The position numbers and the translations under genes were made by a program. Of a stretch of DNA of 64,000 nucleotides, positions 16,142-49,257 are shown in pieces. Source of the stretch: an uncultured archaeon (GTDB taxonomy: Archaea; Asgardarchaeota; Lokiarchaeia; Sigyniarchaeales; SOKP01); assembly GCA_964388035.1 (NCBI GenBank), contig CAYLZE010000006.1, positions 32,001 to 96,000 on the forward strand, given 5' to 3'. Positions within the stretch are counted from its first letter, which is position 1. The number at the start of each line of letters is the position of its first letter. Under the pieces are notes generated by a model. That model ran no database searches. It worked only from the letters and a program-made list of their open reading frames with translations, and was not told the origin of the DNA.

Positions 16142-16394
16142 GATGATTTTTTAAATTATTCCTTTAAAAAAATCTTTTTCCAAATAATATCCTAACAAGC
16201 AATAAATCTCTAATTTTGTAAGAATGATGCTTAAAGAAAAAAAGATTGAAGAAATGTTTTAATGAAGTGATTTTCAATGTTCGAATTTATAATATATAGC
16301 GTAAATCTCCAAAATACACTCTCCACTACCAGGATAAAAAAGCGGATTATCTAATTTTCCCAATCTATATATTCAATAAGGGAATTTAGAGTAA

Positions 16395-16467
16395 TAGTCC
16401 CGTCCGGATTTGAACCGGAGTCTCAGGGTTCAAGGCCCCATATGCTTGGCCGCTACACCACGGGACT
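16395..16467 (-). tRNA. tRNA-Gln(UUG), no encoded CCA, atypical C33
   Basis: Reverse complement AGTCCCG TG GTGTAGCGGCCAAGCAT A TGGGG CCTTGAA CCCTG AGAC TCCGG TTCAAAT CCGGA CGGGACT A folds as a cloverleaf; 5' end typical of archaeal tRNA-Gln. Confidence 0.92.
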
Positions 16468-16678
16468 AAAGAATCGGCAACAATATTTGATGATAAAGGG
16501 TTAAGTGAAAAAACAATATTGTTGTAATATTAAAATGATCTAGTATTAAAAATATAACGAGATATTAATTTTTTATTATTTTTACCACTATTCTATAGTA
16601 CAAAACCTCTAACTAATGGGAGAAGTTTTTTCAAAACACGCAAATTAAAAATCATTTAGCGCATGAATAAAATGGGAT

Positions 16679-32679: not shown

Positions 32680-32955
32680 TCAAGCTCCTTTTCTTTCAGT
32701 TTTCGCTCTTTGAGCTACTTTGCCCGTATGGATAGCGCAACTAATGCATAAATATTTATCGCTACTACCACCCAGAATAATCGTTCCTTCTTTCTTTAAT
32801 TCACGATACATTCTGCTATCAATTAAGGACGTCTTGGACGTAAATTTTTTGGCTTTACTTCGACTCACAAATCGCCCGCAATTAGCACATTGAACTTTTT
32901 GGTAATTTCCTTTACTTGAACCGGTATGTCCTCCACTCCTACGTTTCTTAGGCGT
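32680..32955 (-). CDS. rps26e: 30S ribosomal protein S26e (91 aa, apparent ACG start)
   Basis: Extending the 62-aa ORF upstream gives (M)PKKRRSGGHTGSSKGNYQKVQCANCGRFVSRSKAKK...YLCISCAIH; GGAGGT lies 7 nt upstream of the ACG. Confidence 0.93.
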   Translation of the reverse strand, partial: TPKKRRSGGHTGSSKGNYQKVQCANCGRFVSRSKAKKFTSKTSLIDSRMYRELKKEGTIILGGSSDKYLCISCAIHTGKVAQRAKTERKGA

Positions 32956-46158: not shown

Positions 46159-46470
46159 TTAAGCGCTTCTCTTCTTTTTTTTGATGTAAACTATTAAATA
46201 TAGCACGGATATCATTATAACAAGTGTCAAAACCACTCCGAGAATTCCGGCAACATACTCGCTTTGAATCCAACCTAAAATGGGTTTCCACGGGGAGCTC
46301 AACCCTTCCAGCCAAGATTCACCTTTTGAATCAATTACCACTCTCTCCAATCCATCCGGCTCTGAGGAAATGAGTCCAAGAGGCAAGCCAATGGCAATCA
46401 TTAACGTTAATACCACAATTGTAACAATAAGCGTGATGATGGGCCACTTATATCTGTTCAATGCACTCAT
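46159..46470 (-). CDS. PDGLE-domain Co/Ni ECF transporter accessory protein (CbiN/NikN-like)
   Basis: SSEPDGLERV between two TM helices; directly downstream of cbiM. Confidence 0.9.
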   Translation of the reverse strand: MSALNRYKWPIITLIVTIVVLTLMIAIGLPLGLISSEPDGLERVVIDSKGESWLEGLSSPWKPILGWIQSEYVAGILGVVLTLVIMISVLYLIVYIKKKKRSA

Positions 46471-46473
46471 TTA

Positions 46474-47193
46474 TCATACCACTCCTACTTGTTTTTCAGT
46501 CTTTATTATTTCTGGCTTCACTGGCTTTACTCCCAATTGTTTTTCAGTCATTATCAAATCTGGTTTCGCCTTATAAATATAAAAGATTATAAGACCGGTA
46601 ATGATTGCTTCTCCAATTCCAATTAGCATGTGCCAATATACCATGCTTGGAACAGCTACATTCATTGGAATGATGCCACCTAATCCAATCTCAACCCCAC
46701 AAGCGAAAGCGGCAAGAACGATAGCAATATAAGATCCGATGGCACTAGCTAGAGTAACCTTTAATGGCTTGCTTAATTTCGTCTTATTTAGTCCAACGAT
46801 AATCAGTTTCACGATATAAAATCCTAAAATCCCACAAATGATCCCCATATTGAAAGTATTCGCCCCTAAGGCAGTTATACCTCCATCGCCGAATAAACTC
46901 TGCACGACTAATACTAAAAATAGGACTATAACGGCTGCCCAGGGTCCTAAAATGATGGCTACCATGGTACCCCCTATCAAATGCCCCGAAGTTCCTCCCG
47001 GAACGGGATAATTAACAAATTGGAAAGCAAAAACAACTGCAGCTAGTACTCCAATATATGGAACCATTTTTTCGGAATCTTCTTTTTCAAACATCTTGCC
47101 GACTTTATAAAATCCCATTACAAGGACACTTATTGACACGATCCATAATACGATAAGTGTAGCGGGATCTAAAAGACCATCTGGTATGTGCGT
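46474..47193 (-). CDS. cbiM: Co/Ni ECF transporter substrate-binding component CbiM/NikM (apparent ACG start)
   Basis: Extends 18 codons beyond the ORF track to ACG-CAC-ATA-CCA-GAT-GGT = (M)HIPDG; GGTSGHLIG, FGDGGITALGAN, HMLIGIGEA. Confidence 0.93.
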   Translation of the reverse strand, partial: THIPDGLLDPATLIVLWIVSISVLVMGFYKVGKMFEKEDSEKMVPYIGVLAAVVFAFQFVNYPVPGGTSGHLIGGTMVAIILGPWAAVIVLFLVLVVQSLFGDGGITALGANTFNMGIICGILGFYIVKLIIVGLNKTKLSKPLKVTLASAIGSYIAIVLAAFACGVEIGLGGIIPMNVAVPSMVYWHMLIGIGEAIITGLIIFYIYKAKPDLIMTEKQLGVKPVKPEIIKTEKQVGVV

Positions 47194-47243
47194 TTTATAT
47201 CACCTTCACTACTTTTTAGTTTATTTATCTAAGTTCCCTAATA

Positions 47244-47325: not shown

Positions 47326-47707
47326 AACCTAAGGTTAATCTTCTATTTAGTGATTATTTTAAAGAAAAAAGCCCATTTTATAATTAAAGATAATTAATAA
47401 CACTATATATTAAATAGGATGAAAAAGTTGGATTTAAAAATGTTATTTTCTCATGCTCCATCTCTCAATTTTAAAATCACCAACTTTCTGAATTAAAGAT
47501 TCGTTATTAAAAATAAAAAGTGAGTTGAAGATTATCGAGAGAATTGAAAAAATTAAGAGTAGGGGTTATTTTTATTTTATAATAAATCATTTTTATATAC
47601 TCCATGGTTTTTCATTCTTTGAAGTGTTCGGTGCAAAACAAACGTGACTATTATACATTTACTTCAATTTTTCAAATAGAATTAAAATTATCGTAATATT
47701 GACCAGA

Positions 47708-48514
47708 ATGGATACTACGTTACCTTTTCGGCATGAAAATGAATCTACCTTTTTAGCCTTCTTCCATCCCTTAACGCGGTTAATCTTACCCTTTATTTTT
47801 GTGGTACCCTTCTTATTCATGAAAGATACCTTTCTAATCATTACCTTAATCTTCATAACTTTTATCATTACCCTTTTAGTCCGCCTGAATCTAAAAAGGA
47901 TTTTTAGCAGAGTCGTAACGGTTTTGCCACTTATAATTCTTATCACCATCTTTCTTCCACTATATGAAGGAAGCACGGTCATTTACCAGATTCACCTAGG
48001 GATTACTATTAACATATATCAAGAAGGTGTAAGTTCAGCAATTCTTTTATTTCTTAGAATATTTGGGGCAATATTCATTTTCATGTCCTTTTTCTCATCC
48101 TTTACTTATTCCGAATTTATAGAAGCCCTAACTAAAGCACGGGTAATCCCCTCGATTTTTGTGGGTAGTCTCGTGATAATGCTACATTACATTCCCATTT
48201 TAGCCGAATCTAACAAGAAGATTTTGGAAGCTCAAGAGTTACGAGGCAAGAAAGTAATCACATACTGGGAAAATTTAAAGGCACATGCGTACATTATGGG
48301 AAAAAGCATTATAGTCAACATGGAACGTAGTGAACGCCTTTATGAAAGCTTGAAAATGCGCGGTTTTTCAGGAAAAATTACCTTTGCACCCAAGAAAATA
48401 AAAGTCTGGGATGTACTAATTATAGGGTTCTTTATTCTTTTAGTTAGCTTGTTCATCTATTATATTAACTTACAACAATTTTACATGGAGGTTTTCAAAT
48501 TATTCTTGCCGTAG
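47708..48514 (+). CDS. cbiQ: ECF transporter T component CbiQ
   Basis: HPLTR, AQELRG, ERSERLYESLKMRGF. Confidence 0.9.
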   Translation: MDTTLPFRHENESTFLAFFHPLTRLILPFIFVVPFLFMKDTFLIITLIFITFIITLLVRLNLKRIFSRVVTVLPLIILITIFLPLYEGSTVIYQIHLGITINIYQEGVSSAILLFLRIFGAIFIFMSFFSSFTYSEFIEALTKARVIPSIFVGSLVIMLHYIPILAESNKKILEAQELRGKKVITYWENLKAHAYIMGKSIIVNMERSERLYESLKMRGFSGKITFAPKKIKVWDVLIIGFFILLVSLFIYYINLQQFYMEVFKLFLP

Positions 48515-49257
48515 ACGTGGAAAATTTAAATTTTCAGTATGGATCTGGGTTTAGTCTCGAAAATATTAACCTTAACATCGAAAATGAATCCATATTTGCC
48601 CTTTTGGGAAATAATGGCGCGGGAAAATCTACCCTATTGCGGTTATTAGTCGGTTTATTAAAACCTAAATCCGGCACGATTAAAATATTTGGGACTCCCT
48701 TGACCCGAAATCGCCTTGATTTGTGGAAAATACGCCAACAAATTGGATTTTTGTTTCAAAACCCTGATGACCAACTTTTTGCTCCAACTATTGAAGAAGA
48801 TGTGGGATTCGGTGCCAGGAATTTGAAGCTTCCTGAAGAAGAAGTGCAAGAAAGAACCGAATGGGCTCTTAAAGCCGTTGATCTGCTGGGATATAAGAAT
48901 TTTTCTCCGTTTAACCTCTCATGGGGGCAAAAGAAAAGAGCCTCTTTAGCAGGCTTGCTGGTGCTCAAACCAAAACTTTTAATCTTGGATGAACCTTTTG
49001 CAAACTTAGATTTCAAGTCCATTTTGAATCACATCAAAATTATAGAAACCTTGCGAAAGCAGGAAAAAATGACCATTCTATTCACGACTCATAACCTCTT
49101 TTTTGCGGAAAAATGGGCGAAGGATTGCCTCATTTTAAAAGATGGGAGGACGTTTTACGAAGGAGATCCCCTAGAGGGGTTGGAAAAACCGGAAGTGAAG
49201 GAGTTACTGGGTTCTTATGAACAAATCGAGAGGATGTTCCAAAAATTTAAAAGTTAA
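48499..49257 (+). CDS. cbiO: ECF transporter ATPase CbiO (probable ATT start at 48499; GTG 48517 alternative)
   Basis: GNNGAGKST, FQNPDDQLFAPT, LSWGQKKR, LDEP; GGAGGT at 48487-48492. Confidence 0.9.
   Translation: MILAVDVENLNFQYGSGFSLENINLNIENESIFALLGNNGAGKSTLLRLLVGLLKPKSGTIKIFGTPLTRNRLDLWKIRQQIGFLFQNPDDQLFAPTIEEDVGFGARNLKLPEEEVQERTEWALKAVDLLGYKNFSPFNLSWGQKKRASLAGLLVLKPKLLILDEPFANLDFKSILNHIKIIETLRKQEKMTILFTTHNLFFAEKWAKDCLILKDGRTFYEGDPLEGLEKPEVKELLGSYEQIERMFQKFKS

Follow-up and report, generated by a model that had tools for sequence, protein, structure and literature searches.

The cbiM locus and the head of the gene

The window, that is, the whole stretch of 64,000 nucleotides that was analysed, derives from an uncultured Asgard archaeon of Lokiarchaeia type and holds a cbiM/nikM gene in which the position of the initiator methionine is occupied by ACG. 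The gene, its start region and its neighbours are the following:

46474 to 47193, minus strand: cbiM/nikM coding sequence, S component of an ECF transporter (Pfam PF01891), 239 codons plus the stop codon (46476-46474)
47191 to 47193, minus strand: ACG at the Met1 position of cbiM, with its C at 47192 (direct sequence and ortholog alignment)
47200 to 47206, minus strand: Shine-Dalgarno (SD) sequence AAGGTGA, a complement of the 16S 3' end ...GGATCACCTCCT, with 6 nt between it and the ACG
47206 to 47211, minus strand: two further in-frame stops, TAG (47211-47209) and TGA (47208-47206) (direct sequence)
46159 to 46470, minus strand: small membrane protein with a PDGLE domain, a CbiN-like partner (Pfam PF13190, 25 bits against a cut-off of 27 bits)
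47699 to 48514, plus strand: cbiQ, the ECF T component, divergent to cbiM (Pfam PF02361, 2.2e-24)
48517 to 49257, plus strand: cbiO, the ECF ATPase (Pfam PF00005, 2.1e-32)

Read on the minus strand, the head of cbiM is AAGGTGA, TATAAA, ACG CAC ATA CCA GAT GGT. The initial annotation had described an ACG placed 6 nt behind GGTGA with an in-frame TGA three codons upstream, and the sequence confirms each of these points: the GGTGA core lies at 47204-47200 and belongs to a longer AAGGTGA that begins at 47206, the spacer is TATAAA (6 nt), and the TGA contained in the SD (47202-47200) is in frame with the ACG (TGA TAT AAA ACG). Since the 16S 3' end of this genome is ...GGATCACCTCCT, AAGGTGA is a true anti-SD complement, and its aligned spacing of 9 to the ACG is the modal spacing of the genome. 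Because three in-frame stops precede the ACG, an upstream start is excluded, as are read-through from upstream into cbiM and a longer CbiM precursor. The codon is thus one base off AUG, with no canonical in-frame start available in front of it; the next ones follow at codons 19 (GTG) and 26 (ATG). The ATA at codon 3 was also considered and rejected as a start, as it is too far from the SD and its product would be without His2. An Rfam search detected no riboswitch or other RNA element within or around the cbiM-cbiQ intergenic region.

The translation from the ACG codon is T-HIPDGLLDP... and the Pfam CbiM profile (PF01891, E = 7.9e-57) aligns over positions 1-205 of 205 with residues 2-213. The protein holds the His2-Ile-Pro-Asp-Gly-Leu-Leu-Asp-Pro loop and His71, the equivalent of His67, while its Met1 would depend on initiation at the ACG. 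It retains all of the 38 columns that are invariant among 18 orthologs, and the comparison with the ortholog of another genome of the same genus (G001) gave a pN of 0.15 and a pS of 0.73. Judging from these conserved columns and substitution rates, cbiM is intact, under purifying selection and not a decaying gene. The CbiM homologues carry the labels Promethearchaeota or Candidatus Lokiarchaeota. Downstream, the PDGLE/CbiN-like gene begins with an ATG 3 nt past the cbiM stop, and the divergent cbiQ ORF is listed from TTG 47699, with ATG 47708 as an alternative start. The adjacency of the PDGLE/CbiN-like, CbiQ and CbiO genes fits a predicted ECF Co/Ni transporter.

In CbiM/NikM proteins the metal is bound by the Met1 amino group, His2 and His67 (PMC3945884). 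Their N-terminal loop gives three of the four metal ligands, changes in this loop abolish transport, and an extra Met or an inserted Ala is sufficient to do so (PMC3945884), which upholds the earlier claim that CbiM/NikM requires an N-terminal Met1-His2 for its metal. The protein studied here resembles TtNikM2 (PMC3945884) in its full-length CbiM domain, in the HIPDG loop that comes straight after codon 1, in the His67 equivalent (His71) and in the adjoining PDGLE/CbiN-like, CbiQ and CbiO genes. It differs from the CbiM/NikM of ECF transporters (PMC3945884) in that its Met1 codon is ACG and not ATG. As the function of CbiM fixes its N-terminus to the exact residue, this protein is an especially clean witness of where translation should begin.

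One alternative is that translation of cbiM begins further downstream, at the GTG of codon 19 or the ATG of codon 26, and yields an N-terminally truncated CbiM. Gene finders do pick ATG26: the public CbiM gene call P0006 (214 aa, window 46474-47115, minus strand) begins at Met26 and is therefore without the metal-binding N-terminal loop. Nevertheless, the 18-25 codons skipped in this way encode the first transmembrane helix as well as MHIPDGLLDP, the stretch in which the family is most strongly conserved; the Pfam profile aligns from residue 2 onward, and the lost loop would hold those three of four ligands whose alteration abolishes transport (PMC3945884). Moreover, the sequence has no SD ahead of either GTG19 or ATG26. 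A downstream start consequently seems very unlikely. The call P0006 exemplifies a systematic mis-annotation in the lineage.

ACG and other near-cognate codons at conserved start positions

The genome to which the window belongs (G000) is a metagenome-assembled genome (MAG) of 5.47 Mb in 211 contigs, with 33% GC, 96.7% completeness and 7.3% estimated contamination. The codon that precedes His2 in the cbiM of 20 related genomes is ATG in 17, TTG in two and ATT in one; ACG was found in one genome only among the 20 cbiM orthologs, the present one, and the same-genus G001 has ATG. The two near-cognate genes, with ACG here and ATT in genome G011, each have the full AAGGTGA, and the SD of several ATG-start orthologs is weak or absent. 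Because ACG is unique among the 20 orthologs, a T-to-C change of recent origin, whether neutral or slightly harmful, and a selected ACG start are indistinguishable at cbiM alone.

This distribution could suggest that the ACG is not a functional start at all, being either an assembly or consensus error in place of a true ATG or a recent start-codon mutation in a gene heading to inactivation. The uniqueness of ACG among the orthologs and the ATG of G001 are congruent with this explanation, as is the fact that T-to-C is a transition. The genome is also a MAG and the single assembly of its species that was found: exact-pattern scans of metagenome and genome contigs, with Y at the position of the C, gave zero matches to an independent one. 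Yet, cbiM keeps every invariant residue together with a full-strength SD, and the same substitution occurs at the ortholog start in no fewer than four further intact genes, among them that of an essential ribosomal protein. This second ACG start of the window is the following:

32680 to 32955, minus strand: ribosomal protein eS26 (Pfam PF01283), with ACG at 32955-32953

The initial annotation had counted two ACG-for-ATG cases with well-spaced SDs in 64 kb, and the second one holds: the SD of eS26 is AGGAGGT (32969-32963), 7 nt before the ACG, and residues 2-89 align with positions 2-93 of the PF01283 profile. An in-frame ATT lies two codons upstream of the ACG, merely 1 nt past the SD. The start of eS26 in the relatives is ATT in G001 and several other genera, ATA in G011 and elsewhere TTG or ATG. 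In three further genomes (G002, G010 and G014; loci L051-L053) the eS26 genes have AGGCTGATTTTT-ATT-CCA in common, and a CTG lies in frame three codons ahead of the ATT, so that either codon could be the start.

Candidates in the rest of the genome were sought as SD 5-mers without a canonical start at the right spacing, and the ACG candidates lie mostly at an aligned spacing of 9. Every one that was compared with relatives falls exactly on the ortholog start codon. Including cbiM, five genes have ACG at this precise position. Apart from eS26, these are a DapA-like enzyme (GTG in G001, ATG in G013), a 4Fe-4S protein (ACG-AAT-AAA here, ATG-x-AAA in four relatives) and a membrane acyltransferase-like protein (ACG-AAC-GAA here, ATG-AAT-GAA in G001). 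A sixth case with Pfam support only is a rubrerythrin (G000:C33:24419-24964, minus strand; L221) with an apparent ACG start behind AAGTGA; its Pfam domain runs from residue 9, its first canonical start is codon 18 and an out-of-frame ATG lies within the spacer.

A genome-wide codon test was run on sites of the form GGTGA-N6-NNN, by scoring the share of sites that open an ORF of 100 codons or more. Since the TGA of GGTGA is in frame, such an ORF cannot belong to the inside of a longer gene. The ORF-heading sites over all sites for each codon are:

ATG: 19/65
ACG: 4/21
TTG: 9/80
GTG: 2/18
ATA: 8/92
ATT: 10/151
ATC: 3/60
AAG: 3/72, in each instance with a canonical start at most 10 codons away
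AGG: 0/71
Other 54 codons (control): 29/2868 (1.0%)

ACG is enriched about 19-fold over the 54 control codons (Fisher p = 7e-5), and the values for ATT and ATA against the controls are about 1e-5 each. In this test ACG behaves like a start codon, as do ATT and ATA but not AAG and AGG. This result also bears on the error or decay of the cbiM start, as random error or decay should also yield AAG and AGG, neither of which behaves like a start. A first scan of "orphan SD" sites, in which ACG was enriched just about 2.3-fold, was confounded by GC-rich codons and has been superseded by the GGTGA-N6 test.

The GGTGA-N6-ACG pattern was also searched in three relatives (G001, G009 and G032). Two genes headed by ACG were found in the same-genus G001. 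At the codon in question, the first has ATT in its G000 ortholog and GTG in a G000 paralog; the G000 ortholog of the second begins at an ATG ten codons further upstream. G009, which belongs to another genus, has one ACG-headed gene, and its G000 paralogs carry ATG, ATA and ATT there. These are paralogous membrane proteins with the N-terminus xSVPSSLK/R (G000:C90:14290, C90:17595 and C8:61911; L119 in G009), whose first codon is ATG, ATA, ATT or, in G009, ACG, each behind a GGTGA-type SD. G032, from a different family, has one ACG candidate (L145) without G000 homologue. The recurrence of ACG starts in G001 and G009 is a further argument against an error or a start in decay, an explanation that we regard as unlikely.

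The initial annotation had proposed a relaxed, SD-driven choice of start codons that would be systematic and not the product of error. Three independent tests support this proposal: the ortholog alignment of the five ACG genes, the genome-wide codon test with its internal controls and the ACG starts of two other genomes.

Initiation machinery and the question of C-to-U editing

The explanation that we favor, with a probability of about three in four, is that the cbiM ACG is used by SD-directed near-cognate initiation with Met-tRNAi, the choice of start codons being relaxed in this lineage. AAGGTGA would pair with the 16S 3' end and set the ACG in the ribosomal P site, where Met-tRNAi (CAU) would accept it through pairing at two of the three positions, despite the mismatch at the middle base. 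The CbiM product would then begin with Met1-His2, as the metal site demands. In this Lokiarchaeia-type family ATT, ATA, ATC, ACG and probably CTG would be primary starts behind an optimally spaced SD, with a stringency low enough for productive initiation. Output from such starts may be lower or tunable. In E. coli, the protein initiated at ACG has mostly an N-terminal Met, although Thr-N-terminal peptides were found in one culture (10.1101/063800, Hecht et al.). Since ACG initiation reaches there about 0.1-1% of the AUG level (10.1101/063800), the output of cbiM could be very low.

The initiator tRNA of the genome is ordinary (CAU anticodon, A1:U72, three G:C pairs, CU-CAU-AA loop). It is the sole initiator-type tRNA of the genome; one that carries a CGU anticodon was not found. 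Two aragorn calls of "tRNA-Thr(CGU)" were examined as candidates for a special ACG-reading initiator and rejected, as they are not initiator-like; aragorn recovers few tRNAs in this genome because of introns. The archaeal aIF1 proofreads the codon-anticodon pairing in the P site (PMC7531240). The likely start of the aIF1/SUI1 gene itself (G000:C78:3060-3374; L162:1426-1740) is ATT. Between the upstream stop and the CxxC zinc motif of this gene there is no ATG, GTG or TTG, and ATT or ATC are the sole options there, behind AGGTTGTGA, in 16 of the 18 family genomes. The low stringency of initiation could possibly be set by aIF1 autoregulation, in which the ATT start would act as a stringency feedback like that of the bacterial infC. 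Subunit D of the A-type ATP synthase (G000:C7:70906-71544, minus strand) also has an ATT start, behind GAGGTG; the next canonical start follows 62 codons further down, and the nearby subunit C starts at ATG.

Alternatively, the genomic ACG could be turned into AUG by C-to-U mRNA editing, as in plant organelles, by an activity that might also act on C33 of a tRNA-Gln:

16394-16468, minus strand: tRNA-Gln(UUG), anticodon loop CC-TTG-AA, in which C33 replaces the near-universal U33

The initial annotation had speculated that one C-to-U activity fixes both ACG starts of the window as well as this tRNA position. The C33 itself is real and conserved in several genera: it is also found in G002, G006, G009, G011, G012, G013 and G014 (at least seven other genera), and T33 is present in G008, G010, G026 and G027. 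The tRNA-Gln(CUG) of the genome (G000:C7:54735-54839) has U33 and an intron, and aragorn miscalls it as tRNA-Pyl. Two observations are congruent with editing: ACG is the sole near-cognate that C-to-U conversion turns into AUG, and both these start codons and position 33 of tRNA-Gln show C in some genera and T in others. Nevertheless, editing alone would lead to C/T alternation, and the start positions show more than this. ATT, ATA, ATC, TTG and GTG, none of which is convertible to AUG by C-to-U changes, occupy the same positions in orthologs or paralogs, so editing is unnecessary and the idea of a single activity for both starts and the tRNA finds no support. In addition, ATT and ATA are enriched behind the SD as ACG is, and the ACG sites share no common motif beyond the SD. 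A search of the genome with the cytidine-deaminase fold PF00383 returned one partial match, at a contig edge. We know of no mRNA C-to-U editing in archaea, and nothing on it was found in the literature searched; C-to-U editing of archaeal tRNA is known, from CDAT8 in Methanopyrus. If an Asgard C-to-U activity did make AUG in the cbiM and eS26 mRNAs and restore U33 in tRNA-Gln(UUG), archaea would gain their first known instance of mRNA editing, but we hold this to be very unlikely.

Known systems and implications

Start-codon editing from ACG to AUG is known from plant organelles. They share with the present case a genomic ACG at a conserved Met1 position; here, however, the non-editable ATT and ATA alternate at the same sites, and neither editing nor its machinery is in evidence beyond the partial PF00383 match. 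Several systems offer a comparison for near-cognate initiation by Met-tRNAi, the favored explanation. Eukaryotes and their viruses initiate at ACG or CUG in cases such as AAV VP2 and Sendai virus C', and AAG and AGG are known as the worst near-cognates in all systems. Here too AAG and AGG are unused, and Met-tRNAi would likewise read ACG under e/aIF1 control. In contrast, eukaryotic near-cognate starts rely on scanning and Kozak context and mostly serve alternative or upstream ORFs, whereas in cbiM the ACG would be selected by SD pairing and be the sole start of the main protein.

In the AUU starts of E. coli infC (IF3) and pcnB, a near-cognate behind an SD is decoded by the initiator tRNA, as would be the case here, and the fidelity-factor gene itself stands on a weak codon, infC there and aIF1 here. 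Yet, E. coli has two confirmed cases only (10.1101/063800), whereas near-cognates head a large share of the SD-led genes in the present genome. ACG is included among them, core genes such as eS26 are affected, and the factors are of eukaryotic type (aIF1, aIF1A and aIF2). Haloferax volcanii is also an archaeon with near-cognate initiation sites: in its ribosome profiles about 30% of the putative alternative initiation sites are near-cognate, and the authors set these aside (PMC7261190). Those sites are nonetheless alternative or internal ones in a mostly leaderless transcriptome (PMC7261190), whereas the near-cognates described here are primary starts at annotated positions and are conserved across genera.

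Near-cognate initiation as such is known already from bacteria, eukaryotes and viruses, and from minor sites in Haloferax. The literature searched gave no paper that links Asgard archaea to non-canonical starts, and routine SD-led near-cognate primary starts of core genes, ACG included, were not found there for an Asgard lineage. Very probably, some proteins of this lineage begin at near-miss codons and are cut short by gene finders. Genetic-code table 11 does not allow ACG as a start, so gene callers shorten or overlook the proteins that begin with it, and such calls distort the proteomes, domain inventories and metabolic reconstructions of Asgard archaea. Among known prokaryotes, these archaea are the nearest relatives of eukaryotes, with which they have in common the start-selection core of aIF1, aIF1A and aIF2. 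If AUU, AUA, AUC and ACG are indeed primary starts in this lineage, it would constitute a natural system for the study of start-codon stringency and its evolution, a suitability that is strengthened by the fact that the gene of the fidelity factor aIF1 also appears to stand on a weak start.
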